56,063 bases of DNA from a virus (IMGVR_UViG_3300025875_000029:1-56063); one strand, 5' to 3'. Counted from the first letter of the stretch, positions 2,207-48,950 are shown. Notes: generated by a model from the sequence alone, not told the origin. Numbers and translations are program-made.

Positions 2207-2216
2207 ACTGGACCCC

Positions 2217-2603: not shown

Positions 2604-2656
2604 CGGCGGGGAGCGTACCCTCGACGCTGGAGCTACATCCAACGAGAGGAACAGAC

Positions 2657-4878: not shown

Positions 4879-4927
4879 TGTCCTACGGCCGGAACTGAGC
4901 CCCCGGCCCACAGACAAGGAGCACACC

Positions 4928-6222: not shown

Positions 6223-6253
6223 TTTGCGCGCGACGCAAACCGCATGGTTAAAT
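6223..6253 (+). promoter_or_regulatory. Early-type promoter/operator driving a leaderless mRNA
   Basis: TTTGCGCGCGACGCAAA...TGG-TTAAAT, then 6 nt to ATG 6260. Confidence 0.8.
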
Positions 6254-6259
6254 TTCCGT

Positions 6260-6751
6260 ATGGCCACCGCAGAGATCCCCGCCCCCGGCACCGTCACCTG
6301 CGACAACTGCGGCGAGGTGCACCCCGCCGAGTACAGCCACGACGGGGACCACGGGCAGGGCCCGATCTTCGTCGTCTACTGCACCAAGGACGACCTCGCC
6401 GACTACTACCAGGAGTCCCGGGTCATCCGCCCGGAGCCCGCCCCGGTAGCGCCGGTCGAGGGTCAGACGGAGCTGCTGCTCCTCCCGGACACCACCCCCA
6501 CCGACGACCGGAAGGCGGAGATCGCGGCGATCGTCAACGAGGAGTACACCGCCCAGTACGCCGAGGTCGACCGCCACCGGCGGACCGGCTACGGCCAGTG
6601 CGCCTGCGGCTGGGAGCCCAAGCGCCCCAACGGAGCCCACGCCAACGTCGCCACCGGGGTCCACGTGAAGATGGCCCGCACGAAGGCCGAGAAGACCTGC
6701 CAGGCCAACATCGACCAGCGAATGGCCGACACCCGCCGCCCCATCAACTGA
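6260..6751 (+). CDS. Hypothetical Zn-binding protein (leaderless)
   Basis: CDNC and CACGW motifs; no SD; ATG at the predicted +1. Confidence 0.75.
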   Translation: MATAEIPAPGTVTCDNCGEVHPAEYSHDGDHGQGPIFVVYCTKDDLADYYQESRVIRPEPAPVAPVEGQTELLLLPDTTPTDDRKAEIAAIVNEEYTAQYAEVDRHRRTGYGQCACGWEPKRPNGAHANVATGVHVKMARTKAEKTCQANIDQRMADTRRPIN

Positions 6752-6796: not shown

Positions 6797-6827
6797 TTTG
6801 CGTTCCAAGCAAAACCCGTGGTTTAAT
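6797..6827 (+). promoter_or_regulatory. Early-type promoter/operator driving a leaderless mRNA
   Basis: TTTGCGTTCCAAGCAAA...TGG-TTTAAT, then 6 nt to ATG 6834. Confidence 0.8.
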
Positions 6828-6833
6828 TTACGC

Positions 6834-7037
6834 ATGGCCACCACCGAGCACGCCGCCCATTGCATCGACCTCGCCAAGTACAGCGTCCAGGACGAGCTGG
6901 ACGCCCAGGGCATCGAGACGGCCCTCGACATCACCGACCCCGAGGCCGTCCTGACCATCCCGGCCTGGAACATGACGATGGACGAGGTCGTCGCCCAGTG
7001 GCTCGCCGACGGCAACATCACCTGCAACTGCCACTGA
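6834..7037 (+). CDS. Small acidic hypothetical protein (leaderless)
   Basis: ATG at the predicted +1; ends CNCH. Confidence 0.7.
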   Translation: MATTEHAAHCIDLAKYSVQDELDAQGIETALDITDPEAVLTIPAWNMTMDEVVAQWLADGNITCNCH

Positions 7038-8843: not shown

Positions 8844-8933
8844 AGGGTAGCACGGCTGCTTGCGCTGAGAGCAGACTGCCGGAAACGCCGCGTGCGGCCC
8901 CGGCTTGCGTTGGTGACACGGAACTGGTTTACT
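8844..8933. promoter_or_regulatory. Divergent promoter region with degenerate operators
   Basis: Minus-strand -10 at 8844-8849; TTGC-N7-GCAG at 8860-8874; plus-strand TTGCGT (8905)...TGG-TTTACT (8928-8933). Confidence 0.65.
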
Positions 8934-8977
8934 TGTCCGGCACGCACTTCCCGCCCTCTCCCGCCCCAGGAGCCGAA

Positions 8978-9607
8978 ATGCCCAAGTTCAACCCCGCCAA
9001 GTACGACCCGGCGACCGACAGCTCGCCCGGGACCGCCAAATACCGGACCGGCGGAGCCCCGGCCACGGTCATCCTGGACTGGACCAGCCTCACTCACGCC
9101 CCGGCCCAGCCCGGCGACGCCCCCACCGTCACCAAGGTCTGCCCCTGCGGGTGCCGCGAGCTGCTGGGCAGTAAGTCCAAGTTCCGGATGGGCCACGATG
9201 CCCGCCTGAAGGGCAAGCTGACCCGGGCCCACGTCACCGGCACCGACATCACGATCGTCAAGGGCAACGACATGTCGGTCACGACCGCCGTCGCCCTCGC
9301 CTCCCAGTTCACCTCCCCCGCGATGGACTGGGTCCGGGCCCTCCGCGACGCCGAAAAGCGGCACAAGGACATCCAGGACGCCAAGATCGCCCGCGCGAAC
9401 AAGCAGGTCGTGGCCACAGCGAAGGGCCCGCAGGTCGGCACCCGGAAGCTCGTCAAGGTCGGCCGCTGGAACTACACCGGCCAGATCGTGGCGGTCTACG
9501 AGGACAAGGGCCTGGCGGTCTTCGAATACGTCACGACCAAGGGCGAGACCAAGACCGTCGAGCGCCCGCTGGACGACGTCGCGGCCATGGCCGACCCGGA
9601 GGCCTGA
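8978..9607 (+). CDS. Hypothetical protein with CxCGC...GHDAxLK motif
   Basis: CAGGAG RBS, ATG 8978. Confidence 0.8.
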   Translation: MPKFNPAKYDPATDSSPGTAKYRTGGAPATVILDWTSLTHAPAQPGDAPTVTKVCPCGCRELLGSKSKFRMGHDARLKGKLTRAHVTGTDITIVKGNDMSVTTAVALASQFTSPAMDWVRALRDAEKRHKDIQDAKIARANKQVVATAKGPQVGTRKLVKVGRWNYTGQIVAVYEDKGLAVFEYVTTKGETKTVERPLDDVAAMADPEA

Positions 9608-12572: not shown

Positions 12573-12686
12573 TTTGCGCCGGTCGCATGGCGTGTGTTTT
12601 GCTAGGCGGGCATACGCAGCACGGAGGTCCAGCCCGAACAGCCCGGTCTGGTAGCCTGATTCACCCCCGGCCGGAGCAGGCCCGGG
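12573..12686 (+). promoter_or_regulatory. Degenerate early-type promoter and leader with GGAGCA hairpin
   Basis: TTTGC-N7-GCAT...TGT-TTTGCT; CCCGGCC-GGAGCA-GGCC(C)GGG at 12666-12686. Confidence 0.55.
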
Positions 12687-20372: not shown

Positions 20373-20767
20373 TGCCACGCATCGGAGAACCCACCGCCCA
20401 GGACATCGCCGAGTGGGTACACGAGGCGGCCAAGAGCGTCGCCTACAACCTGCACCGGGGAGACCTGGTCAAGCAGGCTGAGCTACGGGGCAGCCTGGTG
20501 GAGCACGCTGCCAACTGGCTCGACGTAACCCGCCTCAGTGAGGTCAGCCCTCGGGGTGTCAAGCGCTACCTGCTGAAGGTCGCGCTGTACCCCCGGCAGG
20601 TGGGGTACACGCTAGCCAGCGAGATGCTGGAGCAGCGGCTGGAGGAGCAGCTGGCCCTCAAGCCGCAGAACGACCGCTGGGGCCAGGTACGCAGTTACAT
20701 CCGCGAAGGGATCCGGGTCCGGGCGCACCAGCGTCGGACTACCGTCGAGCACGAGGAGCAGTCATGA
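20372..20767 (+). CDS. Hypothetical protein coupled to purZ
   Basis: TAATG overlap upstream and ATGA overlap downstream. Confidence 0.65.
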   Translation: MPRIGEPTAQDIAEWVHEAAKSVAYNLHRGDLVKQAELRGSLVEHAANWLDVTRLSEVSPRGVKRYLLKVALYPRQVGYTLASEMLEQRLEEQLALKPQNDRWGQVRSYIREGIRVRAHQRRTTVEHEEQS

Positions 20768-21819
20768 GCCTTCAGGTTGTCGTGGGTGGACAGTTCGGCA
20801 GTGAGGCCAAGGGCGCGGTCACGGCCGCGATCTGCGAGGAGCAGTCGACCTACCGTCGCGTGACCGTCGTCCGGGCCGGTGGCCCGAACGCCGGGCACTC
20901 GGCCATCGACCACCAGGGTCGGCTGTGGGCGCTGCGGCAGATCCCGGTCGGGATGGTCGTGGACGACCAGATCACCGGGGTCATCGCCGACGGGTCCGAG
21001 ATCGACTTCCCGGTGTTGTTGGACGAGATCCTCCGGCTGGAAGACGCCGGGATCCCGATCCGGAACCGGCTGTACGTCTCGGATGAGGCGACCCTCATCC
21101 TGGATCGGCACAAGACCGCCGAAGGCGAGATGGTAGGCCGTCTCGGGAGCACCGGGAAGGGCATCGGCGCGGCCCGAGCCGACCGTCTGATGCGCCGGGC
21201 ACCCCGGGTGGTGGAGAGCAAGGACCAGTTCAATGAGTACGGCATCCGAGTCAAGGACGGCCGGGAGCTGACCCGGGTCCTCAACCGCACCGTCCGGAAC
21301 GAGGGCTCGACCGTGGTGCTGGAAGGCACCCAGGGCTACGGGCTCGGGCTCACCGCCGGTCACTACCCCCAGTGCACCTCGTCCAACACCCGCGCCGTGG
21401 ACTTCCTGTCGATGGCCGGGATCAACCCCTGGGGGCTGCCCAGGAGCGCAGTCCAGGTGCACGTGGTGGTCCGGCCCTACCCGATCCGGGTCGCCGGGAA
21501 CTCCGGCCCGCTGTACGGCGAGACCAGCTGGGAGAAGCTGAACCTGCCCGTCGAACTCACCACCGTCACCAAGAAGCCCCGCCGGGTCGGCACCTGGGAC
21601 GAGACCCTCGTCCACGCCGCCCTGGAAGCTAACGGGCCCGGCGCTATCCTCGCCTGCTCCATGATGGACCAGGTGCCGGAGTACACCGAGCAGCTCGGCG
21701 ACGTGAAGGTGCTGACGAAGGCCGGGCGGGACTGGCTATACGGCCTGGAAGCCGAATTCGAGACCTCGGTCGGCTGGTACGGCACCGGCCCCCGCCTGCA
21801 GGACTGGCGGACCCTCTGA
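20764..21819 (+). CDS. purZ: PurZ0-type N6-succino-2-amino-dAMP synthetase (adenylosuccinate synthetase paralogue)
   Basis: GGQFGSEAKG (Ser in place of the PurA GDEGKG Asp), GPNAGH, GSTGKGIG, EGTQG, YPQCTS, PIRVAGNSG, TTVTKKPRRVG, SMMDQ. Confidence 0.9.
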   Translation: MSLQVVVGGQFGSEAKGAVTAAICEEQSTYRRVTVVRAGGPNAGHSAIDHQGRLWALRQIPVGMVVDDQITGVIADGSEIDFPVLLDEILRLEDAGIPIRNRLYVSDEATLILDRHKTAEGEMVGRLGSTGKGIGAARADRLMRRAPRVVESKDQFNEYGIRVKDGRELTRVLNRTVRNEGSTVVLEGTQGYGLGLTAGHYPQCTSSNTRAVDFLSMAGINPWGLPRSAVQVHVVVRPYPIRVAGNSGPLYGETSWEKLNLPVELTTVTKKPRRVGTWDETLVHAALEANGPGAILACSMMDQVPEYTEQLGDVKVLTKAGRDWLYGLEAEFETSVGWYGTGPRLQDWRTL

Positions 21820-22445
21820 TGGGCGCGGGCATGGACGTCACCAACCAGGTCCGGCGGGACTCCTCCAACGGATGCGTCGGGTGCGGGGCCAAGCTCGGGC
21901 AGATGCACATCGAGCACTGCCCCGAGCACTACCGGGTGCAGCAGCTGATCCGCGAGCAGACCGCCCACCTCCCCAGGCGAGACGACGCTCGTACCTGGTA
22001 TCGAGGCGAAGGCAACAATCGGGAGTTCCAGGTCGCTGACCATCCGGTCGGGGACGGCTGGCAGCTGTACTCCCAGGGCCCGAAGGACGCGGTGGTGGTG
22101 GGAGGCCCGATCGTCGCCGGGGTCGGGCCCGACGCCCCGACCGTGACGAACGAAGCGGGGGCGAAGCAGTCCAAGGTCCCCTACCGGATGGAGCTGATCG
22201 ATGCCCGAGCGCAGTTCGAGATGGCCCGGGTCCTGGCCGAAGGTGCCGACAAATACGGGGCCGGGAACTGGCGCGGGATCCCCGTCGCGGACCACCTCAA
22301 CCACCTGCTGGTACACGTCTACGCCTACCTCGCCGGAGACACTTCCGACGATCACCTGGCCCACGCCATGTGCCGGGCGATGTTCGCCCAGGCCGTGACC
22401 ATCGAGAACAACCCCGGCAACCTCGGAGAGATGGAGAGCAACTGA
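21819..22445 (+). CDS. dATP/dGTP diphosphohydrolase (DUF5664-like)
   Basis: KQSKVPYRMELI...VLAEGADKYGAGNWRG...HL.H..AYLAG...DHLAHA.C. Confidence 0.8.
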   Translation: MGAGMDVTNQVRRDSSNGCVGCGAKLGQMHIEHCPEHYRVQQLIREQTAHLPRRDDARTWYRGEGNNREFQVADHPVGDGWQLYSQGPKDAVVVGGPIVAGVGPDAPTVTNEAGAKQSKVPYRMELIDARAQFEMARVLAEGADKYGAGNWRGIPVADHLNHLLVHVYAYLAGDTSDDHLAHAMCRAMFAQAVTIENNPGNLGEMESN

Positions 22446-35464: not shown

Positions 35465-35549
35465 TTGAGGTGGTGGTCGGGGCCCTGCTCGGAGTGGCGT
35501 TCGTCGGCGGTCTGTTCGTGCTCGCTCACCGCCGATGGAGGTACCTCCC

Positions 35550-36977
35550 GTGACCCAGGCCCCGGCCACCCCACAGCCGCTGTGGATCCAACAGCTGAAG
35601 CAACGCCTGACCCCGCGTGAGAACGCCTGGAAGGCTCAGCCGAAACAGGCCACCGCGACCCGCCTCGCCGGGCAGGTGGACGACCTGCTGTATGGCGGCG
35701 CGGCCGGTGGCGGAAAGACCGAATGGCTGATCGAGTACATGATCGCCCAGTGCGAGCTGTACCCGAACAACCGCGTGATCGTGTTCCGCCGGGTCTACCC
35801 GTCACTGAACCGCACGGTCATTCCGCGCGCCAAGGCCAAGCTGAAGGGCCGGGCGAAGTGGAACGGCCAGGAACACACCTTCACGTTCCCCAACGGCTCG
35901 ATCTTTGAGGTCGGGTCGCTGCAGTACCTGGACTCGGTGATCGACTACCAGGGCGTCGAGTACGGCTGCATCGGGTTCGAGGAGATTACCGAGTTCCAGC
36001 AGTCCCAGGTGGAATTCCTGATCGGCCGCCTGCGGTCCACGATCCCCGGGGTCCGACCGCACCTGGTGGCCACCACCAACCCGGGCGGCGCTGGTCACAA
36101 GTGGGTGAAACGCTGGTGGGTGAAGCCGAAGAAGGAGGACATCGAGCCCGGCGAGATGCCTCCGGCTCCTTTCGAGGTGTGGCGGCCAGCTGCTACCGCC
36201 GACGTCCCCCGACCCAGGTCCCGGGCGTACGTACCCGCCACCCTGGAGGACAACCCGGCGCTGATGGCGGCCGACCCGGACTACGTCCACCGGCTGAACG
36301 CCAACTCCAAGCGAGCCCTGCGGGAGGCGTTGAAGAAGGGCGACTGGGATGCGATCGACCAGATCGAGGGCGCGCTGTGGGACGCGGCCGAGCTGGACCG
36401 GGGACGGGTGCGGCCGGAGCAGCTGAGCATGATCGGCGTAGCCCGCCGGGTGATCGCGGTCGACCCGTCGGACGGCGAGGAGGGTGGGGACGAGTTCGGC
36501 GTCTCGCACGTCGCGAAGGGCATGGACGGGGTCGGCTACGTACTGGGTTCCTGGGCCTGGCAGGCCAGCCCCCGGAAGATGGCGGAACGGGCGGTCGGGC
36601 TGTACTACGAGGTGGGCGCGGACGCGATGGTGATCGAACGCAACCACGGCGGGAAATGGATGACCGAGGTGTTCCGCCAGGTGGATCCGAACGTCCGGAT
36701 CATCGAGGTCTGGGCGAGTGACGGCAAGCGCACCCGGGCGGAACCCGTGTCGGCGCTGTTCGAGTACGACCAGTACGCGCTACTCCCGTACCGGGCGCGG
36801 ATGGTCGGGTACCAGCCGGAGTTGGAGGACGAGCTGGTCCTGACTGATTTCCGGCAGGGCGCTCCGTCCCCGAACCGGCTGGATGCGATGGTGTGGGGTT
36901 TGACGGACCTGATGCTGGGTCACCAGACCCGGGCGAGGAAGCCGGGCGGGGACGGCCGACACCGGGGACGACGCTAG
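35550..36977 (+). CDS. Terminase large subunit
   Basis: YGGAAGGGKT Walker A, IGFEE Walker B, TTNPGG, VIAVDPS, PNRLDA. Confidence 0.93.
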   Translation: MTQAPATPQPLWIQQLKQRLTPRENAWKAQPKQATATRLAGQVDDLLYGGAAGGGKTEWLIEYMIAQCELYPNNRVIVFRRVYPSLNRTVIPRAKAKLKGRAKWNGQEHTFTFPNGSIFEVGSLQYLDSVIDYQGVEYGCIGFEEITEFQQSQVEFLIGRLRSTIPGVRPHLVATTNPGGAGHKWVKRWWVKPKKEDIEPGEMPPAPFEVWRPAATADVPRPRSRAYVPATLEDNPALMAADPDYVHRLNANSKRALREALKKGDWDAIDQIEGALWDAAELDRGRVRPEQLSMIGVARRVIAVDPSDGEEGGDEFGVSHVAKGMDGVGYVLGSWAWQASPRKMAERAVGLYYEVGADAMVIERNHGGKWMTEVFRQVDPNVRIIEVWASDGKRTRAEPVSALFEYDQYALLPYRARMVGYQPELEDELVLTDFRQGAPSPNRLDAMVWGLTDLMLGHQTRARKPGGDGRHRGRR

Positions 36978-36978
36978 G

Positions 36979-37034
36979 TTTGCGCCCAGAGCAAGGCCAT
37001 GGTTGAATAGTCCTGTGGCCGGGGAGCACCGGCC
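36979..37034 (+). promoter_or_regulatory. Early-type promoter/operator plus GGAGCA-loop 5' hairpin
   Basis: TTGC-N7-GCAA, TGG-TTGAAT, GGCCGG-GGAGCA-CCGGCC. Confidence 0.8.
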
Positions 37035-37055
37035 AGGACTCGACGAGGAGCAGAC

Positions 37056-37535
37056 ATGACCGCCACCGAGAACACCAACCGCGTCACCGCCGACTTCATC
37101 GCCCCGAACGGGCACCACGTCGTGGCGGTCAGCTGGTACGGCAAGCAGGCGATCGTCAAGACCACCCAGCGCGGGACCACGACGATCCACCTCTCCGGCG
37201 ACCGGGTGACGGAGGCCGAGAACACCAACCTGTTCCACGGCATCCTGGACGTCGTCCACAAGGAGAACCTGGCCAAGGTCGCCGCCCAGGTCCCGAACGG
37301 CGGGGTCCCCGCCATCGCCGACACGGCCAGCCAGGCGCAGGCCGCCCGTGAGAAGGCCGACAAGACCGGGACCGAGCTGATCGAGGCGCTGGCCTCGGTC
37401 CTGCCCGTCCTGGACCGGAAGGTCGCCTACCGCCTCGACGGCCTGCTCGCCCAGCTCCGGGCTGACGAGTACACCGCCGGGTACGCGGCCGGCCGGGTCG
37501 TCAACGCCCGGGTCGACGGCTCCGCCCGCCACTGA
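37056..37535 (+). CDS. Hypothetical protein
   Basis: GAGGAG RBS; codon bias. Confidence 0.8.
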   Translation: MTATENTNRVTADFIAPNGHHVVAVSWYGKQAIVKTTQRGTTTIHLSGDRVTEAENTNLFHGILDVVHKENLAKVAAQVPNGGVPAIADTASQAQAAREKADKTGTELIEALASVLPVLDRKVAYRLDGLLAQLRADEYTAGYAAGRVVNARVDGSARH

Positions 37536-37603
37536 CTGCACGACCCGCCGCCGGGCAGATCCCGGCGGCGGGGCACCACCCCAGCACCGAGCTAGGAGCC
37601 GAA

Positions 37604-37918
37604 ATGTCCCAGTACGACCCCGCCCTTGACGACGCCGCCCGCGAGGCCCGCCTCCGCAAGGAGAACAAGAAGCCCCGGCGGTACTTCCCCTGGGTGTTCC
37701 TCGCGATCCAGCTGCTGTTCGTGATCTGGATCGTGTCCGCCATCGTCGGCAACTCCGGGGACCCCGTGGGAGACTGCGGGTCGCTGTCCCAGCAGGCGTG
37801 CAACGACGCCGAGTCGGTCGGCACCGGTATCGGGGTCGCCCTGGTGGTGATCCTTTGGCTGGTCGTGGACTTCATCCTCGCGATCACCTACCTGGTGTTC
37901 AAGGCCGTCAAGCGCTGA
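37604..37918 (+). CDS. 2-TM membrane protein with external Cys pair
   Basis: TAGGAG RBS; two TM helices around C-x7-C. Confidence 0.8.
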   Translation: MSQYDPALDDAAREARLRKENKKPRRYFPWVFLAIQLLFVIWIVSAIVGNSGDPVGDCGSLSQQACNDAESVGTGIGVALVVILWLVVDFILAITYLVFKAVKR

Positions 37919-37956
37919 CCCGGCCGGGGGCCCTGGCGAGCACCCAGGGCCCCCGG

Positions 37957-38016
37957 TTTGCGTTACCCGCAAATCCCGTGGTTTAATTTTGGGGTACGGC
38001 CGGGGAGCACCGGCCG
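37957..38016 (+). promoter_or_regulatory. Early-type promoter/operator plus GGAGCA-loop 5' hairpin
   Basis: TTTGCGTTACCCGCAAA, TGG-TTTAAT, CGGCCGG-GGAGCA-CCGGCCG. Confidence 0.8.
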
Positions 38017-38037
38017 CCAACCCGCGAGGAGCCCAAC

Positions 38038-38376
38038 GTGACCAGCACCCCCAGCACCACCGCCACTGCGCCCGCCGAGGTCGCCCCCGCCGACTTTACC
38101 GGCTACCTCATCGTCTACGTGCTGGACGGCGAGGGCCCCGGGATCTGGCAGGTCGTCCGGACCCCCGGCGCCTGGTGCGAGACCTGCAACGCCAACCCGG
38201 AGAACACCCCGGCCAGCCAGCTCTACCGGACGGTCGCCCTCAGCCACCAGTTCGACCCGGAGCTGGGGGTCTGCCACCGTTGCCTCGTCGGGGTCTGGGA
38301 GACCCGGCAGGACCCGCGCACCCCGCCGAGCAACGACGGCCTGGCGTACGTCTACCCGCCCAGCGACCGGGTCTGA
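38038..38376 (+). CDS. Hypothetical Zn-binding protein
   Basis: GAGGAG RBS; CETC...CHRC. Confidence 0.75.
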   Translation: MTSTPSTTATAPAEVAPADFTGYLIVYVLDGEGPGIWQVVRTPGAWCETCNANPENTPASQLYRTVALSHQFDPELGVCHRCLVGVWETRQDPRTPPSNDGLAYVYPPSDRV

Positions 38377-38419
38377 ACCACCGGGGGCCCGGCCGACACG
38401 CCGGGCCCCCCGCCCCCAG

Positions 38420-38478
38420 TTTGCGCGGGACGCAAGTCCCGCGGTTAGATTGCCCCATCGGGCCGGGAGCACGGCCCG
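38420..38478 (+). promoter_or_regulatory. Early-type promoter/operator plus GGAGCA-loop 5' hairpin
   Basis: TTGC-N7-GCAA, CGG-TTAGAT, CGGGCCG-GGAGCA-CGGCCCG. Confidence 0.8.
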
Positions 38479-38496
38479 CGACACGAGGAGCCCCAA

Positions 38497-38877
38497 ATGC
38501 CCATGCAGACCGCCACCGCCCAGCTCGCCGCGAACCGCCGCATCCTGGAGGCGCTCGGCGTCCCCCGCATCCCCACGGTCGAGGAGGCCGTGATCCTGAC
38601 CGGGAGCACGGTCGGGACGTACCTCATCGAGGAGATCAACAAGCAGGCGTTCGAGGTGGCCCAGGCCGACGCCGACGCCATCCGGGCCGCCGGTGAGATC
38701 CAGCGCTACGCGAACGACGTGGCGGATCGGATCGCGAAGCACGAGTACACCGATGGGACCTGGGTCGGCCAGGCCGCCGGGCGGGTCGTCGAGGCCACCA
38801 ACAAGCGCCGTGAGGCGCTGCGGACCCTGGCCCAGCTGACCTACGCCGCCAGCAAGGCCGTGGTCGACTTCTCCTGA
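38497..38877 (+). CDS. Hypothetical helical protein
   Basis: GAGGAG RBS; codon bias. Confidence 0.8.
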   Translation: MPMQTATAQLAANRRILEALGVPRIPTVEEAVILTGSTVGTYLIEEINKQAFEVAQADADAIRAAGEIQRYANDVADRIAKHEYTDGTWVGQAAGRVVEATNKRREALRTLAQLTYAASKAVVDFS

Positions 38878-38937
38878 CCGCCCGCCGGGGGCCCCGAACT
38901 GGGGCCCCCGGCACCACCCTTCGAAGGAGCAGGAGAC

Positions 38938-39348
38938 ATGGGCAACTGTCGCGACTGCGGGACCCCGCTCAGCGAGGAGAACACCTACCGGAACCAGACC
39001 CGGCGGACCTGCCGGAGCTGCCTGACGGCCCGGGTGGCGGCCCACGACCGGGAGCTGAACGAGCGCACCCGGGAGACCGCCGACAACTATTACCAGCGGT
39101 GGGAGGCGCACGAGCTGGAGCTGCTGCTGCAGGGTATCGCGGAGGGCACCTCGCTGATGGACCTGGCAGTGGTCCTGGGCCGGACCCGTCACGGGGTCGC
39201 GACGAAGCTCAACTCGATCCGCCGGGCTGAGGAGGCGGGGGATACCGTCCAGGCCGCCCGGAGGGCTCCCAGCGGGCGGACGACCCCAGCCGTGGCGGTC
39301 CGTACATGCACCGTCTGTTTCGTGGTGGTGCCCTGCTTCTGCGACTGA
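38938..39348 (+). CDS. Zn-finger plus HTH/Myb-like DNA-binding protein
   Basis: CRDC...CRSC; WEAHELELL...LAVVLGRTRHGVATK; C-terminal CTVC...CFCD. Confidence 0.7.
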   Translation: MGNCRDCGTPLSEENTYRNQTRRTCRSCLTARVAAHDRELNERTRETADNYYQRWEAHELELLLQGIAEGTSLMDLAVVLGRTRHGVATKLNSIRRAEEAGDTVQAARRAPSGRTTPAVAVRTCTVCFVVVPCFCD

Positions 39349-39416
39349 CCCGAGGACGAAACCCTGGGAAGGGTCCACGGCTGGGTGGCCGTGCTGATGA
39401 GTCCGGGTCGACTCAC
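39347..39416 (+). ncRNA. Type II hammerhead ribozyme (HH1); predicted cleavage after C39375
   Basis: GGAC-GAA-ACCCT(GGGA)AGGGT-C-CACGGC(TGGGTG)GCCGTG-CTGATGA-GTCC; stem II extension GACCC/GGGTC; loop I UGGGU pairs with 3' ACUCA. Confidence 0.93.
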
Positions 39417-39427
39417 GAGGAGGAACC

Positions 39428-39826
39428 ATGCAGGTCATGAAGGCAGTACGCGGGACCGCTGTCGCGGGCGCGGTCGCAGTCGCCGCCCTCGCCCCGCTGG
39501 TCGGGCCGGTGGCACCAGTCCTGGTCCCGTCCCTGGTCCTGGCCGAAGGCCCCTCGTCCGGGGTCGCCCAGGAGGCGGACGCCGCTTTCTACGGGGTGGT
39601 CTACAACCAGTCCGCCCACTTCGTGAACGTCCAGTTCGAGAACGGGGTAAGCCGGAGTCTCCCACCGGGCGAGTTCTCGGGCAGCTTCTCCGACGTCCGC
39701 AAGTTCACGACCTTGACCGGGTGCGAGACATATCGCCTGGACGGGGCCGGGACCTGGCGCACCCTGACCAAGGGGGCCTCGGTCCTGCTGAGCAACCGCA
39801 TGGCGGAGGTTCGCAGCCGCTGCTGA
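39428..39826 (+). CDS. Small secreted protein bracketed by hammerheads
   Basis: GAGGAGG RBS; hydrophobic signal, ADA site, beta-rich domain with two Cys. Confidence 0.8.
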   Translation: MQVMKAVRGTAVAGAVAVAALAPLVGPVAPVLVPSLVLAEGPSSGVAQEADAAFYGVVYNQSAHFVNVQFENGVSRSLPPGEFSGSFSDVRKFTTLTGCETYRLDGAGTWRTLTKGASVLLSNRMAEVRSRC

Positions 39827-39831
39827 CCCCA

Positions 39832-39902
39832 GGTCCCGAGGACGAAACGCCGCGAGGCGTCCGTGGCTGAGCAGTCACGCCGACGAGTCCGGACCGACTC
39901 AC
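39832..39902 (+). ncRNA. Type II hammerhead ribozyme (HH2, core variant CCGACGA); predicted cleavage after C39861
   Basis: GGAC-GAA-ACGCC(GCGA)GGCGT-C-CGTGGC(TGAGCA)GTCACG-CCGACGA-GTCC; extension GGTCC/GGACC; loop I UGAG pairs with 3' CUCA. Confidence 0.85.
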
Positions 39903-39915
39903 TGAAGGAGCCGAA

Positions 39916-40431
39916 ATGCGATCCATCATGAAGCCCCGCACCCGCGTCGCCGCGTTGTTAGTGGCGGCTACGGCCGGGTTCTCCGGCGCGGCTGTCGCCT
40001 TCCCGGTGGCGGGGCCGTCCGCCCCGGCACCGGAGTCGGCGCTGACGGCGGAGGCGTACGACACCCCGGAGGAGGCGATCCGGGCGGCGGAGGCTCAGTC
40101 CAGCGGTACCAACCTGCTCGGGCAGCCGATGCCTGCGGCCGACGCGCACCACAACCACTACCGGGCCATCTACCACCACAGCAACAGCGTGGTGGGGTCG
40201 CTGACCTACGCCGACGACGGCGGGACCTCGTGGGGGCTCGGTCGTGGGGGCGGCACCTGCTGCTTCCAGGGCGGGTCGGTGTACGTGGGGTCGGCGCACG
40301 ACGTGATCGAGACGTCGCGGGAACGGCCCAGCTGGGCCCGTCGGCTAGCGAACACCGGCTGGTACGGCGTCGCCGCGCTGGACAGCCCCGGGCACATGTA
40401 CTACCGGGCCGTGCCCAACGGCGGTAACTGA
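39916..40431 (+). CDS. Small secreted His/Gly-rich protein downstream of HH2
   Basis: AAGGAG RBS; Sec signal (AVA), Pro/Ala/Glu linker, ADA site, CC pair. Confidence 0.8.
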   Translation: MRSIMKPRTRVAALLVAATAGFSGAAVAFPVAGPSAPAPESALTAEAYDTPEEAIRAAEAQSSGTNLLGQPMPAADAHHNHYRAIYHHSNSVVGSLTYADDGGTSWGLGRGGGTCCFQGGSVYVGSAHDVIETSRERPSWARRLANTGWYGVAALDSPGHMYYRAVPNGGN

Positions 40432-40475
40432 TCGCACACCGCCCGGGGTCGTCGCGACATGCGGCGGCCCCCGGG

Positions 40476-40531
40476 TTTGCGGCCCACGCAAACCCGTGGT
40501 TTACTGGTCATACGGGCGAGGAGCATCGCCC
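40476..40531 (+). promoter_or_regulatory. Early-type promoter/operator plus GGAGCA-loop 5' hairpin
   Basis: TTTGCGGCCCACGCAAA, TGG-TTTACT, GGGCGA-GGAGCA-TCGCCC. Confidence 0.8.
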
Positions 40532-40551
40532 ACGGAGCAAAGGAGCCCGAT

Positions 40552-40800
40552 ATGCGCGAACTCTGGCAGACCGAGATCAAGATGGACGGCCAGCTGGTCA
40601 CCAACCCCGGTGTCGCGGAGGACATCCTCCGGACCCTCGGGGTCGAGTACACCGAGATCGAGGTCGAGTCGGCCGAGGACGGGCTCTACCTCGTCGGGTT
40701 CCTCGGCCGGGAAGCCCGCTACCTCGCCGCCGACACCGAGGTCTGGATCTCCGAGGACCTGGGCGGCAAGAACTTCCAGGTCTACGTCCCGCAGCCCTGA
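40552..40800 (+). CDS. Small acidic hypothetical protein
   Basis: AAGGAG RBS, ATG 40552. Confidence 0.75.
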   Translation: MRELWQTEIKMDGQLVTNPGVAEDILRTLGVEYTEIEVESAEDGLYLVGFLGREARYLAADTEVWISEDLGGKNFQVYVPQP

Positions 40801-40857
40801 GACACCCGCCCCGCCCCCACCCGGGGGCGGGGCACCCTTTACCCGGAAGCAGGAGCC

Positions 40858-41010
40858 GTGAGTAAGCTCGAAACCCTCCGTCGCACCCTCTACTTCGCCC
40901 AGCGCGGGATCGGGGACATCCAGGCCGCCCAGCGCGGCCCCGAGGTCCTCGCCAAGCGTATCGTCCGCCGCTCGGTCACCCGGGCCCTCTTCCGGGCGTT
41001 CGGGCTGTGA
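40858..41010 (+). CDS. Small basic hypothetical protein (50 aa)
   Basis: CAGGAG RBS, GTG 40858; GTGA overlap with the next gene. Confidence 0.6.
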   Translation: MSKLETLRRTLYFAQRGIGDIQAAQRGPEVLAKRIVRRSVTRALFRAFGL

Positions 41011-41285
41011 ACGTCAACCTGGGCCCGGCGCACATCGCCCACGAGGAGGCTCTGAAGGCCCAGATCGACCAGCACCGGGCGGTGATGGTGGTGGCTTTCC
41101 CGACCTTCCGGTTCGCCAGCTCACCCGTCCTGGTGCCGGACGAGGAGCACGAGGCGCTGGGCGTTTACCAGGTCTGGTGGCCGGTGGTGGACTCAGCCAC
41201 CAGTCAAGCGACCTTCCTGCACGTCAGCCCCGACGGCGTCCGGGTGGAGATGGAGGCGATCCTCCCCGACCACTGGTTCAGCTAG
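41007..41285 (+). CDS. Hypothetical protein
   Basis: Translationally coupled ORF. Confidence 0.6.
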   Translation: MNVNLGPAHIAHEEALKAQIDQHRAVMVVAFPTFRFASSPVLVPDEEHEALGVYQVWWPVVDSATSQATFLHVSPDGVRVEMEAILPDHWFS

Positions 41286-41349
41286 GATAGACCGAGCAGC
41301 AGAGGAGGTGATGGCGATGCGCGGCTGGAAGTGGAACTGAGCACCCGAA

Positions 41350-41385
41350 GAGAGGCCCCCGACCCCTGAGGTTCGGGGGCCTCTC
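41350..41385 (+). terminator. Terminator-like hairpin closing the accessory island
   Basis: GAGAGGCCCCCGA...TCGGGGGCCTCTC. Confidence 0.7.
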
Positions 41386-41468
41386 CATGTTTGGGGTAAC
41401 CTGGCGTCGTCACTCCCGGCTGATCGGGGCGGTCCGGCCGGGAGTGACCCCAACGATGAAGGAGCAGA

Positions 41469-43292
41469 GTGGCTGACGAGCTGATCTTCGACCAGTACAC
41501 GCCGCTGTCCTTCAAGGCCGCCATCGGGGAGTCGGACCGGCCGGGCATCGCCTGGACCGCGCCGACCTGGGTCGGGGACGAGGCCAGGCGTCGTCTGCAG
41601 GCGTACAAGCTGCTCCAGGCGTACCTGGACAACGCGTCCCGTGAATTCATCGGGGACAGTGACCCGGAGAGCCGAGCCCGCCACCGGGAGTACGGCGACG
41701 CCGCCCTGATCCGGGACACGACCCTGGCCGCCCTCCTGGGCGTGGACGTCCACATCGCGACCGACGGCGCGGCCGACTTCGACCCCGACGACGAAGAGGC
41801 CGACCCCGACCCTGACGCCGAGGCCGCGTTCGACTTCCAGGACTGGGTGCAGGACTGGGCGACCAAGGAGCGGTTCCGGCTGAAGCTGATGGAGGCCGAG
41901 CGCACTTCGGTCGGCCTCGGCGACGCCGTGTACACCCTCGGGTACTCGCCGGAGAAGGAGCGGGTCCGGCTGCGGGTCTGGGACCCCGGGTTCTACTTCC
42001 CGGTCCTGGACGACGGGAATGAGGACGACTACCCGCGCACGGTCCACATCGCCTGGGAACTCCCCCGGGACGAGGACCGGCCGGGCGAGCTGAAGATCCG
42101 CCGCCTGACCTGGCGGCTGGGCGGGATCCGGCCGGTGGTGGACGTGTCCGGCCCGATCCCCAGCGTCCGCCCCGGTCCCGGCGACGGCACCGACCGGCGG
42201 ACCGGCCGAATCACCCGAAACTACGCGTGGAACGACAAGCCCGCGTTCGAGACCTGCTACTTCAGCGACGGTACCTGGACGCTGGACAATGTCGACAAGT
42301 GGGGCGTCGCCCGGCTGGCCGACGAGGACGGGGTCTACCAGACCCAGTACAACGAGCGAACCGGCGAGTTCGAGGAGATCCGGGACCTGGACCTGCGGAT
42401 CGACTTCATCCCGGTGGTGCACGTCCCGAACACCGTCGCGATCGCGAACCACTTCGGGCAGTCCACGCTGTCCCGGGTGCTGCAGATTCTGGACGACCTG
42501 TCGAACGCCGACACCGACATGCAGGCCGCCGCCGCCACGTCCGGCCGTCCGGTGATGGCGCTGGAGGGTGGGTCGCTCGGGAACCGTGTCGCGACCTACG
42601 AGCCCGGCGAGGTCTGGGAGGTCGGCGGCGGGAAGCTGACGGTCATCGACACGACCTCCAGCCTGGCCGCGCTCCAGGGATTGGTCGACGCCCTGTGGCG
42701 GCGGCTCTCGTCGAACTCGCGCATCCCGGAGAGCCTCCTGGGGCGGGTCGCCCCGTCCGAGGTCCCGTCGGGGGTCGCCCTGGCGCTGTCGTTCGGCCCG
42801 CTGTCGAGCATGATCGACGAGATGCGGCTGAGCCGGGCCGACAAGTACCCGCTGCTGTTCAAGTTCGTGCACCGGATGAGCCAGGCGGCGCTGCTGCCGG
42901 AGGTGCCCGCCGAGTACCTGGAGACGACCCTGGACTTCGGGCCGTTCCTGCCCTCGGACAAGGACGGGATCGCGACCACCGTGGCGGCCCTGCTGCAGGC
43001 GAAGGCGATCGGCCGGAATACCGCCGTCCGCTGGTTGAAGTCCGCCGGTTGGGACGTCGAGACCGTGAGCGACGAGGTCAGCGACATCCAGGCGATCGAC
43101 TTCGAAGGTGCCGGGGCGATCCTGGATCTGACCGGCGACGTCCAGGCCGCCATCGACTACCTGGGGTTGGAGGGCGTGGTGGCGGTTCGCCAGCCCGCAC
43201 CGGAGGAGCCCGAGGTGGACGAGGACGGCAATCCGGTCGAGGATGACCCAGCCGACGAGACAGAACCGCCCGCCGGACCGCCTGCTCCCTAA
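41469..43292 (+). CDS. Portal protein
   Basis: 607 aa, first gene of the head module; GLGDAV, PVVHVPN, GQSTL, PSGVAL patterns. Confidence 0.85.
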   Translation: MADELIFDQYTPLSFKAAIGESDRPGIAWTAPTWVGDEARRRLQAYKLLQAYLDNASREFIGDSDPESRARHREYGDAALIRDTTLAALLGVDVHIATDGAADFDPDDEEADPDPDAEAAFDFQDWVQDWATKERFRLKLMEAERTSVGLGDAVYTLGYSPEKERVRLRVWDPGFYFPVLDDGNEDDYPRTVHIAWELPRDEDRPGELKIRRLTWRLGGIRPVVDVSGPIPSVRPGPGDGTDRRTGRITRNYAWNDKPAFETCYFSDGTWTLDNVDKWGVARLADEDGVYQTQYNERTGEFEEIRDLDLRIDFIPVVHVPNTVAIANHFGQSTLSRVLQILDDLSNADTDMQAAAATSGRPVMALEGGSLGNRVATYEPGEVWEVGGGKLTVIDTTSSLAALQGLVDALWRRLSSNSRIPESLLGRVAPSEVPSGVALALSFGPLSSMIDEMRLSRADKYPLLFKFVHRMSQAALLPEVPAEYLETTLDFGPFLPSDKDGIATTVAALLQAKAIGRNTAVRWLKSAGWDVETVSDEVSDIQAIDFEGAGAILDLTGDVQAAIDYLGLEGVVAVRQPAPEEPEVDEDGNPVEDDPADETEPPAGPPAP

Positions 43293-45982: not shown

Positions 45983-46365
45983 CCGCTCCGCTCCACCCGT
46001 TCGACGAGACGCAGGTGGCCCAGCTCCAGGCGGAGCTGGGCACCACCCTCGACTTCGAGAATCTGACGGCCCGGTACGTCCGGCTGGAGGGTGACCTCGA
46101 CGCCGTGATCACAGAGGTGCTCCGGATCCGGCTGGCCGACATCAACGCCGGTCCCACCACGTTCAGCATCCCCGGCGAGTACAGCCAGGACGCGACCGCC
46201 CAGCAGAAGGCGCTGGAGGCCCGGCTCGGTGTGAACGCGACGACCGCCCAGGCGTTCGTCAACATCGCCCGCTCGAAGTTCTCCCGCCCCGACGAGCGGG
46301 CGATGGACACCGAGGAGCGCACGGTCCGCCGTAGCGCGTGGCGGCAGGGTCGCCGGGGCCGGTGA
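45979..46365 (+). CDS. Head-to-tail adaptor (putative)
   Basis: Position, size and FSIPGEYSQ motif. Confidence 0.6.
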   Translation: MTAPLHPFDETQVAQLQAELGTTLDFENLTARYVRLEGDLDAVITEVLRIRLADINAGPTTFSIPGEYSQDATAQQKALEARLGVNATTAQAFVNIARSKFSRPDERAMDTEERTVRRSAWRQGRRGR

Positions 46366-48950
46366 CCGAGCCGATCCGTCTTCCCGCCTCGCAGAAGCAG
46401 GCGTCCGAGGCGTTGGCCGACGCCTACGGCGAGGCGTGGAAGCGGATCAACGACGCCCAGCTCGCCCTGGGCGACGACCCGCTGCAGGCGCGGAAGAAAG
46501 CCCGGCTGAACGAACTGTCCGCCATGGTCAGCCGGGAACTGATGGAACTGGACGGCAAGGCCCGCGAGTACGCCAGCCAGAAGCACGGCGGGATCTTCAC
46601 CGCAGCCTCGATCCGGGCCGCTAAGGCTGTGGACCCGGAGGCGCTGGCGTACGTCCAGCCGAACATCGAGGCGGCGGAGAAGCTGGCGAACGGCCTGGAG
46701 CGGGAGCTGCTGGAGGCTACCGCCCACGTCGACCAGACCACCAAGCAGCTGATCCGGAAGATCGGCCGGGATGCTGGTTTGAAGACCGCCATCGACGGGA
46801 AGACCGCGAAGCAAGCGGGGACCGAGATGGCGCGGATCCTCCGGCAGTCCGGTATCCACGCGGTGACCTACGCCAACGGGGCGAAGGTCGGCCTGGAGTC
46901 CTACGCCCGGATGGCGATCCGCACCTCGACCGCGCTGGCGTTGAACCAGGGTGCGATCCAGGGTTCGGAGGACGCGGGGTGCCTGTGGTGGGAGATCTTC
47001 GACGGCCAGACCTGCGGGTGGAAGAACCACAAGGACCCGGAGCGGGCGCACGGGAAGGTCGTCTCGCGCGAAGAGGCACTCGCCTACCCGATCGCCCACC
47101 CAAACTGCCGCCGAGCGGTCGGCCCCCGGCCGGACCTCGGTATCGACAAGTCGGTCCGTGGAGCCCCCAAGCCCCAGGTGAAGACCAACGCCGATATCGC
47201 CAAGAAAGCCGCGAACAACACCCCACCGGCGCAGACTCCGGGCTCGGTGGTCAACGGCGTCCAGACGTTCAAGATGGGGCCGATCGGTGGTGGCGGGCCG
47301 GTCCTGACCAGGGAGCAAGTGGCGGCCAACATCGCCCAGGCTGAGGCGGAACGGAAGGCCACCCTCGCCAAGTACGCCCAGGTGATCCAGGAGCAGAAGG
47401 CTAAGGACGCGGCGGAGCGGGCCGCCAAGGCAGCTGCGAAGAAGGCCAAGTCCGAGGCCGCCCAGCAGGCCGCGTCGCTGCCGGACCCGACCCCGACCAA
47501 CGGCGAGTTCGTCTACCCGGATTACCTGTTCCAGGTCGCCAAGATCGACAAGCGGCTGAAGGCCAGTCAGTTCAAGCTGAACCCTCGCACTCAGAAGCTG
47601 ATCACCGACCGACTGGCCGCTGCCGACTTCGACCCGGACCTGGCGTCCGAATACGACCTGCTGGTCTGGGTACAGGAGACCAGCGCCCGGGTCGGTAACG
47701 GCGACGACCTGTCGGCGGCGATGCACGCGCTGGGCCGCCACAACGAGAAGCGGGTTGTCCGGTACCTGGTCGACGGTGGCCGGATGCCGGATCCGATCGA
47801 CCTGACCCCCGGCACGGCGAAGACCGACATCGTCCCGAGCTACCCGAGGACCGACGCCGACACGTTCTGGCAGCCGACGGTCCCGGTCGACGCCGACAGC
47901 GTGTCCGCCCGGGGCCAGGAGGTGATCCGCCAGTTCAACGAGGTCTGGGGCGAGGACGACCTTACCCCAGCTCAGCTGGCGGCGGTGAAGGCGTACAGCC
48001 GGGGGTCGGACAAGGCGATCAACACCCGACTCCGGAAGGGTGCGAAGGACAACGCCCAGACCACCGCGCTCCGGGCGGCGATGCGACCGCTGCCCCGGTC
48101 GACCCGGGTCATGCGAGGGGTGGACCTGGACACCTTCGGGTACAAGGCGATCACCGACCTGGATTACCAGGGCTTCGACGACTACGACGGTCAGATGTCG
48201 TTCCTGCGGGCCATGGTCGGCAACACCTTCGAAGACCGAGGCTTCATGTCCACCTCGGTTAACCCGAACGGCGGGTTCGCGGCTGAGGTGGACATCGTGA
48301 TCGACGTCCCCGAGGGCTACCGGGGGGCCTGGGTCGAGCCGCATTCCAACTCGCCGGGCGAGGCTGAGCTGCTGCTGGACCGGGGTACCCGGCTGGAGAT
48401 CTACAAGGTGGAGGACGCCGGGGTCGGCAGTAGTGCCTCGCTGGCGAGGATCTACGCCCGGGTGGTGCACCAGGACGACACTTACGACTACGACCCGAGC
48501 AAGGCGGCCGAGTCGCTGGAGCGGGGCAAGAAGACCCCGGGGACGGGCACCGAGGAACCGCCACTGCTGCGGCGGACCGCGAAGATCACCGAAGCTCCGG
48601 ACAGGTCGCTGTACCCGTCCCAGCTGCCGCCGCCGGTGGTGGAGGCCAAGCCGGGCGGGGACCTGGTGGAGGTCGTCCAGGTCGTCGGCCCGGTGGACAA
48701 GTACAGCAAGCTCCCGTTCGACATCCCGAAGCGCCCGCCGAATGTCGCCAGTTCGCCGAAGGTCGAGCTCACCGGCGTTACCGAGTCGGGGACGATCGAG
48801 TTCGCCGACGGGACCACCTTGAATCCGATCCAGGGTATGACGTTCCGGAATGGCCAGGTCACGAACATGGGCGGGCCGTCTCGGGTGAAGTGGGCCAAGA
48901 CGATCGGCCAGCTGTGGAACCAGCACAACGGAGGAGTGGTCCAGACATGA
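46362..48950 (+). CDS. MuF-like minor capsid protein fused to a VIP2-type ADP-ribosyltransferase
   Basis: YARMAIRT...PIAHPNCRR (MuF); YS....IN..LR, VMRG, GFMSTS, EAELLL (R-STS-ExE). Confidence 0.88.
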   Translation: MTEPIRLPASQKQASEALADAYGEAWKRINDAQLALGDDPLQARKKARLNELSAMVSRELMELDGKAREYASQKHGGIFTAASIRAAKAVDPEALAYVQPNIEAAEKLANGLERELLEATAHVDQTTKQLIRKIGRDAGLKTAIDGKTAKQAGTEMARILRQSGIHAVTYANGAKVGLESYARMAIRTSTALALNQGAIQGSEDAGCLWWEIFDGQTCGWKNHKDPERAHGKVVSREEALAYPIAHPNCRRAVGPRPDLGIDKSVRGAPKPQVKTNADIAKKAANNTPPAQTPGSVVNGVQTFKMGPIGGGGPVLTREQVAANIAQAEAERKATLAKYAQVIQEQKAKDAAERAAKAAAKKAKSEAAQQAASLPDPTPTNGEFVYPDYLFQVAKIDKRLKASQFKLNPRTQKLITDRLAAADFDPDLASEYDLLVWVQETSARVGNGDDLSAAMHALGRHNEKRVVRYLVDGGRMPDPIDLTPGTAKTDIVPSYPRTDADTFWQPTVPVDADSVSARGQEVIRQFNEVWGEDDLTPAQLAAVKAYSRGSDKAINTRLRKGAKDNAQTTALRAAMRPLPRSTRVMRGVDLDTFGYKAITDLDYQGFDDYDGQMSFLRAMVGNTFEDRGFMSTSVNPNGGFAAEVDIVIDVPEGYRGAWVEPHSNSPGEAELLLDRGTRLEIYKVEDAGVGSSASLARIYARVVHQDDTYDYDPSKAAESLERGKKTPGTGTEEPPLLRRTAKITEAPDRSLYPSQLPPPVVEAKPGGDLVEVVQVVGPVDKYSKLPFDIPKRPPNVASSPKVELTGVTESGTIEFADGTTLNPIQGMTFRNGQVTNMGGPSRVKWAKTIGQLWNQHNGGVVQT

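Follow-up and report, generated by a model that had tools for sequence, protein, structure and literature searches.

The virus record IMGVR_UViG_3300025875_000029:1-56063 of IMG/VR, analysed here in full (the window: 56,063 bases, GC content of ~69%, estimated to be ~72% complete), bears a 4.5-kb insert between its terminase and portal genes (36978-41468), in which ~10 small open reading frames (ORFs) without informative family matches are organized as moron-like cassettes of terminator, promoter, leader and gene. Four of these genes are preceded by a short GC-rich hairpin with a loop resembling a Shine-Dalgarno (SD) sequence, located at the predicted 5' end of the message, and two further copies lie elsewhere in the window. 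An earlier note, made by a model without knowledge of the origin of the DNA, had reported the first four (at 37017, 37997, 38460 and 40514, all with loop GGAGCA), a fifth copy at 12666 and, at 4887, the same stem with another loop. All four are present and correspond to the minimum free energy (MFE) folds of their leaders, and the variant at 4887 is as described; the copy at 12666 exists too and is kept in a related phage, but it is weaker, interrupted and preceded by a different promoter. The hairpins considered here are the following:

37016-37035, + strand: hairpin W1, UGGCCGG-GGAGCA-CCGGCCA, after 1 unpaired 5' nucleotide (nt); SD GGAG at 37047, ATG at 37056; leader MFE -17.8 kcal/mol, z -2.62
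37997-38016, + strand: hairpin W2, CGGCCGG-GGAGCA-CCGGCCG, after 3 unpaired 5' nt; SD at 38028, GTG at 38038; untranslated region (UTR) of 44 nt; covariance-model score of 36.8 bits
38459-38478, + strand: hairpin W3, CGGGCCG-GGAGCA-CGGCCCG, after 2 unpaired 5' nt; SD at 38487, ATG at 38497
40514-40531, + strand: hairpin W4, GGGCGA-GGAGCA-UCGCCC, after 2 unpaired 5' nt; ATG at 40553; leader MFE -17.9 kcal/mol, z -3.23
4886-4908, + strand: hairpin W5, CGGCCGG-AACUGAGCCC-CCGGCC, with a variant loop at 4893-4902; GTG at 4928 opens a 37-codon ORF
12665-12686 (region 12649-12686), + strand: hairpin W6, CCC.GGCC-GGAGCA-GGCC.GGG, behind promoter TGG-TAGCCT and ahead of a Sak4-like gene (ATG at 12713)
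38594-38617, + strand: intragenic hairpin of 9 bp with loop GGAGCA, within ORF 38497-38877; covariance-model score of 20.3 bits

Geometry of the Leaders

The stems of W1-W4 comprise 6-7 GC-rich pairs, each stem being the dominant element of the MFE fold of its leader, while the MFEs of the hairpin leaders of the window range from -16.4 to -21 kcal/mol. From the end of the hairpin to the real SD (GGAG), the distance is 8-11 nt in W1-W4, where the earlier note had about 10 nt, and the start codon lies 18-21 nt past the end of the hairpin; these SDs are mostly unpaired in the predicted folds. In the leader of W4, a second GGAGCA stands at 40534 and the SD, GGAGCC, at 40542. W6 is weaker, with 4 bp, a C.C mismatch and 3 bp (z -0.49), and its -10 hexamer, TAGCCT, belongs to another promoter type.

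Together with the copies found in relatives, W1-W6 form a set of 11 promoter-proximal hairpins, every one of which leaves only 0-4 unpaired nt before its stem, counted from the predicted +1. The start codon follows the hairpin by 18-21 nt in eight of them and by 25-26 nt in the other three, for UTRs of 38-49 nt.

Promoters and Predicted Transcription Starts

The same promoter module occurs seven times on the + strand of the window (4848, 6223, 6797, 36979, 37957, 38420 and 40476), its pattern giving 11 matches (palindromic reverse matches included) vs. 0.13 expected. It consists of a 17-bp inverted repeat, TTTGCG-N5-CGCAAA, the left half of which provides a TTGCGN -35, then, after the -35, a spacer of 18 nt with TGG at its end and a TTTAAT, TTAAAT, TTTACT, TTGAAT or TTAGAT hexamer, i.e., the geometry of an extended -10. 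The repeat over the -35 has the appearance of an operator to which a dimeric DNA-binding regulator would bind, and the T-run upstream of the module doubles as the tail of the hairpin that terminates the preceding gene. A simple sigma-70/terminator scanner, tuned to the E. coli consensus, picked up none of these promoters or terminators. The promoters relevant to the leaders are listed below:

36979-37008, + strand: promoter 1, TTTGCG-CCCAG-AGCAAG, -35 TTGCGC, TGG-TTGAAT; predicted +1 G37015
37957-37987, + strand: promoter 2, TTTGCG-TTACC-CGCAAA, TGG-TTTAAT; predicted +1 G37994; adjoins the preceding gene's terminator hairpin
38420-38450, + strand: promoter 3, TTTGCG-CGGGA-CGCAAG, CGG-TTAGAT; predicted +1 A38457
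40476-40505, + strand: promoter 4, TTTGCG-GCCCA-CGCAAA, TGG-TTTACT; predicted +1 A40512
4848-4878, + strand: promoter ahead of W5, of the same class as promoters 1-4
6223-6262, + strand: promoter with leaderless gene 6260-6751; ATG 6260 is the 7th nt past the -10 hexamer; no SD
6797-6836, + strand: promoter with leaderless gene 6834-7037; ATG 6834 is the 7th nt past the -10 hexamer; no SD
8905-8980, + strand: related promoter (8th site), TTGCGT...TGG-TTTACT, no inverted repeat; leader without hairpin

Leaderless mRNAs begin at the A of their ATG, and all five leaderless genes found behind this promoter class (two in the window, two in the related contig L134 and one in the related fragment L158) have that ATG at the 7th nt beyond the -10 hexamer; the +1 of the class is set by this fixed distance. 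That transcription begins a few nt from the hairpins, as the earlier note had it, is an inference from this geometry, the +1 positions used throughout being predicted from promoter geometry and leaderless genes rather than mapped.

Two of the eight window promoters of the class are thus leaderless, five have a 5' hairpin and one (8905) has an unstructured leader; the five hairpins carry the GGAGCA loop in four cases and AACUGAGCCC, on the same stem, in the fifth (4886-4908). Going by these predicted starts, a 5' GC hairpin with an SD-like loop heads most leadered early-type messages of this high-GC phage. Moreover, the hairpin is seen after two promoter types, i.e., the class described above and promoters with a TAGCCT or TAGGGT -10 (W6 and R5, its counterpart in L158), which implies that the element travels with the 5' end of the RNA and not with one type of DNA promoter.

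Covariation and Conservation of the Stems

Among the 243 + strand hexaloop hairpins of the window (stem of at least 6 bp), GGAGCA is the top loop, with five copies vs. three for the runner-up, and when the window was simulated 100 times with a first-order Markov model, a mean of 0.04 GGAGCA hexaloop hairpins and a maximum of one were obtained, figures that exclude chance. The five copies counted in this way include the intragenic hairpin at 38594-38617, which is probably a chance occurrence, since it is not kept in L134 and similar bit scores are reached in the coding sequence of other loci.

Covariation was assessed on an alignment of five hexaloop copies, four from the window and one from a relative, two of them nearly identical. 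In this alignment, 94.3% of the cells pair and both sides change in four of the seven pairs, with compensatory changes from G-C to A-U, G-C to C-G, C-G to G-C and C-G to U-A. The covariation score was matched by one of 500 shuffles, and controls slid by 1-3 columns pair at 20-43%. For five sequences, these statistics are suggestive and point clearly one way. The covariance model proposed as a check by the earlier note was also built (R1, a model too small to detect variants reliably); over 165,387 bases, it gave more than 34 bits only for its five training copies. Its next matches (21.4, 17.6, 17.1 and 14.8 bits) correspond to three sites in apparent coding sequence and to one terminator-like hairpin past a stop codon (L159 7560).

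Almost no relatives of this virus are present in IMG/VR, and one pattern scan of metagenome contigs returned five loci, of which two are true relatives. One comparison is with L134 (minus strand), i.e., the terminase-to-portal block, syntenic with that of the window, on a metagenome contig of 58 kb, of which 4 kb were compared. Its proteins are 50-84% identical to those of the window (92% for the C-terminus of the terminase), and its four promoters of the class include two leaderless ones and two with a hairpin. Upstream of the gene orthologous to 38038, L134 has CGGCCGG-AAUGAGCA-CCGGCCG, so that with respect to W2, which shows GGAGCA on the same stem, the loop is altered and the stem kept. 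Conversely, ahead of the ortholog of gene 38497, L134 has GGCCGG-GGAGCA-CCGGCC where the stem of W3 is CGGGCCG/CGGCCCG: here the stem is altered with compensation and the loop kept, while the encoded proteins are only 53% identical. The loop described as invariant is therefore so in the four copies of this genome, but not at the orthologous site with AAUGAGCA.

Other related sequences extend the picture. A 1.2-kb locus (L132) has GGCCGG-GGAGCACA-CCGGCC downstream of the same promoter. In L158, an IMG/VR fragment of 17 kb that stems from the early region and has one leaderless copy of the class, the ortholog of W6 follows TGG-TAGGGT, and an indel and a substitution re-register the stem while the loop GGAGCA is retained; the ortholog of the 8905 leader has a weak hairpin (GC.CCGG-GAGCAA-CCGG.GC), whereas the window leader has none. 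In a more distant phage (L127/L160), the promoter is present and the hairpin absent, GGAGCA being there the SD. The terminase/capsid relatives L124-L126 have no promoter motif or GGAGCA hairpin of this class; the promoter regular expression gave no match in L124, L125, L129 and L130, which are likewise terminase/capsid relatives, and the covariance model gave only weak matches (<16 bits) in L125, L129 and L130.

Broader pattern searches were set aside. A loose promoter pattern matched at least 118 loci in viral contigs, of which seven with GC >0.6 were inspected and none was related. The exact 18-mer of stem and loop matched viral contigs once, in another phage (L128) and on its antisense strand, which we put down to chance, and a loop-agnostic pattern (-10 followed by GGCCGG-N6-10-CCGGCC) returned 12 loci there, all of them unrelated terminator-like sites. 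In genome contigs, the promoter pattern gave 20 matches, none actinobacterial by title, which were taken as chance, and this search found no prophage or host copy. Among 50,697 named phages, no DNA-level relative was found (no megablast match for 36900-40700; chance blastn matches for one module, E ~1-10), and the nearest named phages by terminase or capsid protein, with hosts among Actinobacteria or others, reach only 27-38% identity.

The compensatory stem changes, both within the genome and between orthologous sites, together with the fixed place after the predicted +1, bear out the proposal of a selected RNA motif, and we regard these hairpins as a real, selected RNA family at predicted mRNA 5' ends. 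Alternatively, these inverted repeats just downstream of the promoters might be a DNA-level element (an operator or a roadblock), or a functionless by-product of cassette duplication. Indeed, the stems contain no G-U pairs and all copies lie on the strand of the genes, so that the strand of action is not provable, and the promoters do hold a separate 17-bp inverted repeat that is conserved in sequence. Yet the arms of the hairpins covary, whereas the adjacent TTTGCG/CGCAAA repeat keeps its sequence, and both loop and pairing persist despite diverged flanks and the divergence of the orthologous proteins, which makes an explanation of this kind quite unlikely.

An SD-Like Loop

Across the 11 hairpins, the loop contains GGAGCA in nine cases and GAGC in all. 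GGA is missing from two loops, AAUGAGCA in L134 and AACUGAGCCC at 4893-4902, which contain UGAGCA and UGAGCC, i.e., the two SD flavours of the phage with the first G swapped, and the length of the loop is 6, 8 or 10 nt. Indeed, the commonest SD hexamers are GGAGCC (13) and GGAGCA (8), among 56 candidate + strand SD-start pairs, some of which are false internal ones. GGAGCA as a whole has 66 matches in the window (49 on the + strand) vs. 37.9 expected, an overrepresentation due to its being a favoured SD flavour. To judge from these hexamers, the hairpin loop copies the phage's own SD flavour. In W1-W4, no ATG, GTG or TTG stands at SD distance after this copy. In nine of the 11 hairpins, the GGAG of the loop falls at about +9 to +14 from the predicted +1, with an anti-SD complementarity of 4 nt (GGAG) in the hexaloop, reduced to GAG in the two variant loops. 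No UGCUCC that could pair with the loop was found in 36900-40700.

The earlier note saw in the loop the recognition geometry of CsrA/RsmA, which likewise bind a GGA in the loop of short 5'-leader hairpins. With GGA in nine of the 11 loops and a second GGA in the SD ~20 nt downstream, the spacing would even suit a CsrA dimer. However, PF02599 was not found at E<=1 in the 56-kb record (~72% complete), the part of the loop conserved throughout is GAGC rather than GGA, and the register differs: the CsrA consensus is A(N)GGA, whereas here GGA takes up positions 1-3 of the loop, immediately next to the stem and with no preceding A. Furthermore, the nearest phage relatives infect Actinobacteria, in which, to our knowledge, CsrA is not a general regulator. 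This identification is thus unsupported, a CsrA/RsmA-type site being very improbable.

Ribosome docking or standby, which the earlier note offered as an alternative, fares better. In its purely translational form, the hairpin, at -20 to -40, would be a standby or platform-docking enhancer without any role in decay, as hinted at by the SD-like loop, by the spacing of 18-21 nt between hairpin and start codon kept in eight hairpins despite differing intervening sequences, and by real SDs predicted to be mostly unpaired. Nevertheless, these SDs are already strong (A/G-AGGAGC) and accessible, hence no obvious need for standby; the variant loops are devoid of GGAG, and a link to +1 as tight as 0-4 nt would be needless for a standby site. 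We therefore hold a purely translational role to be unlikely, although docking of the ribosome to a loop that copies the favoured SD hexamer comes close to the explanation that we prefer, which centres on stabilisation (see below).

The main competitor is the binding site of a specific phage or host RNA-binding protein that would read the GAGC(A) loop whatever the GC stem, as an antiterminator of the N/boxB kind or as a regulator of translation or stability. A free stem combined with a constrained loop is what one classically expects of a hairpin that a protein recognises, and GAGC is kept in 11 of 11 loops and GAGCA in nine, even though CA is not complementary to the anti-SD. The sites also come right after early-type promoters, in cassettes whose strong terminators each abut the next promoter. 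In lambda nut sites, boxB is similarly a short hairpin, early in early transcripts, with a recognised loop and a stem varying between phages; it has a 5-bp stem, a GNRA-like pentaloop, a boxA partner and an arginine-rich N protein. A nut site proper was rejected, given loops of 6-10 nt that are not GNRA-like and the lack of any N-like or antiterminator family in the PHROGs and Pfam scans. More generally, these scans (44 and 42 window ORFs, respectively) revealed no RNA-binding, N-like or antiterminator domain, and no boxA-like partner was noticed, boxA not having been formally searched. The variable length of the loop, the loss of the hairpin in the 8905 leader with respect to its L158 ortholog, and the leaderless transcripts of the same promoters, which have no hairpin and must cross similar terminators, also speak against such a protein, so that we regard it as a possibility worth keeping but doubtful.

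It would nevertheless fit such a protein that the real SDs, too, carry GGAGC(A/C), a situation comparable to that of the unexplained start-associated sequences (SAS) of cluster K mycobacteriophages (PMC3203893). As presented there, SAS is specific to actinophages, has an AGGAGCC core at the SD position and no known function, and is sometimes preceded by an upstream inverted repeat; the function was still untested in 2025 (PMC12699233). With this shared core and its unexplained function, SAS is nonetheless the nearest actinophage analogy. The associated ESAS repeats (17 bp) are conserved in sequence, with no support for RNA pairing in the same available text (PMC3203893), whereas the stems described here covary and occupy the 5' end. 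The hairpins are not the SAS/ESAS system, and the window itself is not enriched in SAS: the 13-mer GGGATAGGAGCCC, which in SAS stands 3-7 nt before start codons, gave 22 matches vs. 32.5 expected when up to 3 mismatches were allowed, and only two lie at gene starts in the 36978-41468 block. Hairpins of the kind reported here were not found described for actinophages in the open-access literature searched. By extension, the GAGC(A) hairpin and the GGAGC(A/C) SD might together form an address label of an actinophage post-transcriptional system, read by some phage or host factor that would decide the fate of a whole class of early-type/moron transcripts by way of read-through at terminators or of timing, be it of translation or of decay. 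The logic would be that of lambda N/boxB or T4 RegB, with unrelated sequences; we deem this extension slightly less probable again than the RNA-binding protein alone.

Other RNA Elements and Genomic Context

Two type II hammerhead motifs are found in the window (39354-39404 and 39840-39890, + strand), between ORFs 38938-39348, 39428-39826 and 39916-40431, and L134 has one at about 905-959 (- strand). Their layout is GGAC-GAAA-stem III-GUC^-stem I-CUGAUGA-GUCC, and in the alignment of the two window motifs with that of the relative, 45 of 45 cells pair, with four compensatory pairs, even though the Rfam model Hammerhead_II gives only 19.7 bits vs. a gathering score of 37. The second window motif (core CCGACGA, with two core positions changed) may be inactive. 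If cleavage occurred at such a candidate hammerhead, the message downstream would have the 6-bp stem I hairpin at its very start. The N-termini of the ORFs 39428-39826 and 39916-40431 resemble, by eye, signal peptides.

Intercistronic GC hairpins without a U-tract occur at 37545-37580 and 38882-38918 (+ strand) and at two similar L134 sites, each followed by GGCACCACC(C) just before the next SD; the one at 38882-38918 weakly matches the Rfam Rothia-sucC RNA (28.6 bits vs. a gathering score of 64.5, E 0.012). GAGCA also stands in the loop of the terminator hairpin that precedes promoter 2 (37920-37956, + strand; GGGCCCUGG-CGAGCAC-CCAGGGCCC), and UGAGCA in the loop of stem I in the second hammerhead, both possibly by coincidence. 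In the window as a whole, no Rfam family scores as high as its gathering threshold, the 5' hairpins are covered by no match at E<=10 in 36900-40700, and no tRNA gene was found in the 56,063 bases.

PHROG and Pfam scans of the window ORFs reveal a siphovirus-like gene order, nearly all on the + strand, with these landmarks:

53-3658: end of the tail genes and endolysin (PHROG/Pfam)
from ~4.8 kb: early/replication block, with exonuclease, Sak4-like, primase-polymerase, DNA polymerase, PurZ-like adenylosuccinate-synthetase, dATP/dGTP diphosphohydrolase and dUTPase
20764-22445, + strand: adenylosuccinate-synthetase-like gene (PHROG '2-aminooxy adenylosuccinate synthetase', E 2.4e-87; Pfam PF00709)
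35535-36977: terminase large subunit (PHROG/Pfam)
41469-43292: portal, followed by scaffold and major capsid
46338-48950, + strand: large minor-head-type protein, the residues 581-692 of which match the PHROG ADP-ribosyltransferase exoenzyme toxin (E 1.3e-13)

The adenylosuccinate-synthetase-like gene adjoins that of the dATP/dGTP diphosphohydrolase (PF18909), with the DNA polymerase close by. We take this combination of PurZ-like protein, PF18909 and polymerase to be the gene set of Z-genome phages, in which 2-aminoadenine replaces adenine. A Z-genome, if there is one, might bear on the unusual -10 hexamers, whose second position is T, not A.

A Putative 5'-Terminal Stabiliser

Our preferred interpretation, to which we would grant somewhat less than an even chance, is that the hairpins are 5'-terminal stabiliser stem-loops, located in the first ~22 nt of the message and displaying an SD-like loop, akin to the ompA and aprE leaders and to STAB-SD. 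According to this scenario, the host RNA polymerase would initiate 7 nt past the TTTAAT-like -10, and the 5' hairpin would withhold the single-stranded entry used by the pyrophosphohydrolase, by RNase E in its 5' sensing and by the 5'-exonuclease RNase J. The loop GGAG(CA), ~20 nt ahead of the real SD, would probably also dock the 30S subunit, in the manner of STAB-SD or of a standby site. We favour this interpretation because of the place of the hairpin 0-4 nt from the predicted +1, its stability, and its occurrence after two promoter types and never on leaderless messages, three features that a stabiliser needs, while neither a CsrA site nor an operator nor a terminator would require them. 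The candidate hammerheads, whose cleavage would likewise yield messages with a 5' hairpin, offer a parallel that would support the same logic.

Known systems provide partial precedents. The ompA and papA leaders of E. coli and the aprE leader of B. subtilis share a stable hairpin a few nt from the 5' end, followed by an unpaired strong SD, as does the leader of T7 gene 10, in which the hairpin is part of the initial transcribed sequence of the promoter, as here. In contrast to the ompA/aprE type, the element of this phage is predicted to recur on 5-6 transcripts or more, its stems covarying and its SD-like loop being conserved, while we know of no loop constraint for the ompA or T7 hairpins. 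The STAB-SD of B. thuringiensis cryIIIA and the polypurine element of B. subtilis, the latter reportedly derived from phage SP82, also place an SD-like sequence near the 5' end from which no translation is initiated, and stabilise through 30S binding. Yet they are single-stranded and longer, with a complementarity of ~9 nt, where the hairpins have GGAG in a hexaloop, or only GAG in two of the 11. PMC3997798 refers, for 5'-terminal stem-loops as mRNA stabilisers, to Emory 1992 and to Bouvet and Belasco 1992; for the aprE 5' stem-loop combined with ribosome binding, to Hambraeus 2002; for STAB-SD, to Agaisse and Lereclus 1996; and for the polypurine 5' stabiliser, to Hue 1995. In organisms with RNase E, a 30S subunit at an upstream SD-like site can block the scanning of this enzyme, as stated in the part available of PMC7148126.

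Several points nonetheless count against a stabiliser. A purely structural one needs no fixed loop, which leaves the conservation of the loop half explained, all the more so as GAGCA rather than GGAG is best conserved and the length of the loop varies. [quoted passage not shown] Besides, the 8905 leader and L160 do without the hairpin, so the element must be dispensable, and the T instead of A at -11 means that recognition by the primary sigma factor of the host is only assumed. Finally, up to 3-4 unpaired 5' nt (W2 and the relatives' hairpins R1, R3 and R4) are at the limit for blocking 5'-end enzymes; BsRppH depends on two or more unpaired 5' nt, according to the available text of PMC3997798.

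Implications

We see here a well-supported motif with a plausible and fairly conventional predicted function, the GAGC(A) loop being its one unexplained feature. Were the stabiliser interpretation true, this phage would use a compact and portable cassette for expression in high-GC hosts, in which a terminator is joined to a promoter bearing an operator, to a 5' cap hairpin whose loop is SD-like and to a strong SD; on several genes, the cassette would be reused with differing stems. Its leaders would then represent natural, sequence-diverse 5' stabilisers for Actinobacteria, where mRNA stability and the rules of leadered and leaderless messages are poorly known, and they would permit a clean test of whether a 5' SD-like loop protects mRNA in organisms endowed with both RNase E and RNase J. 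If the loop were instead read by a dedicated factor, the hairpins would point to a new phage regulatory circuit.

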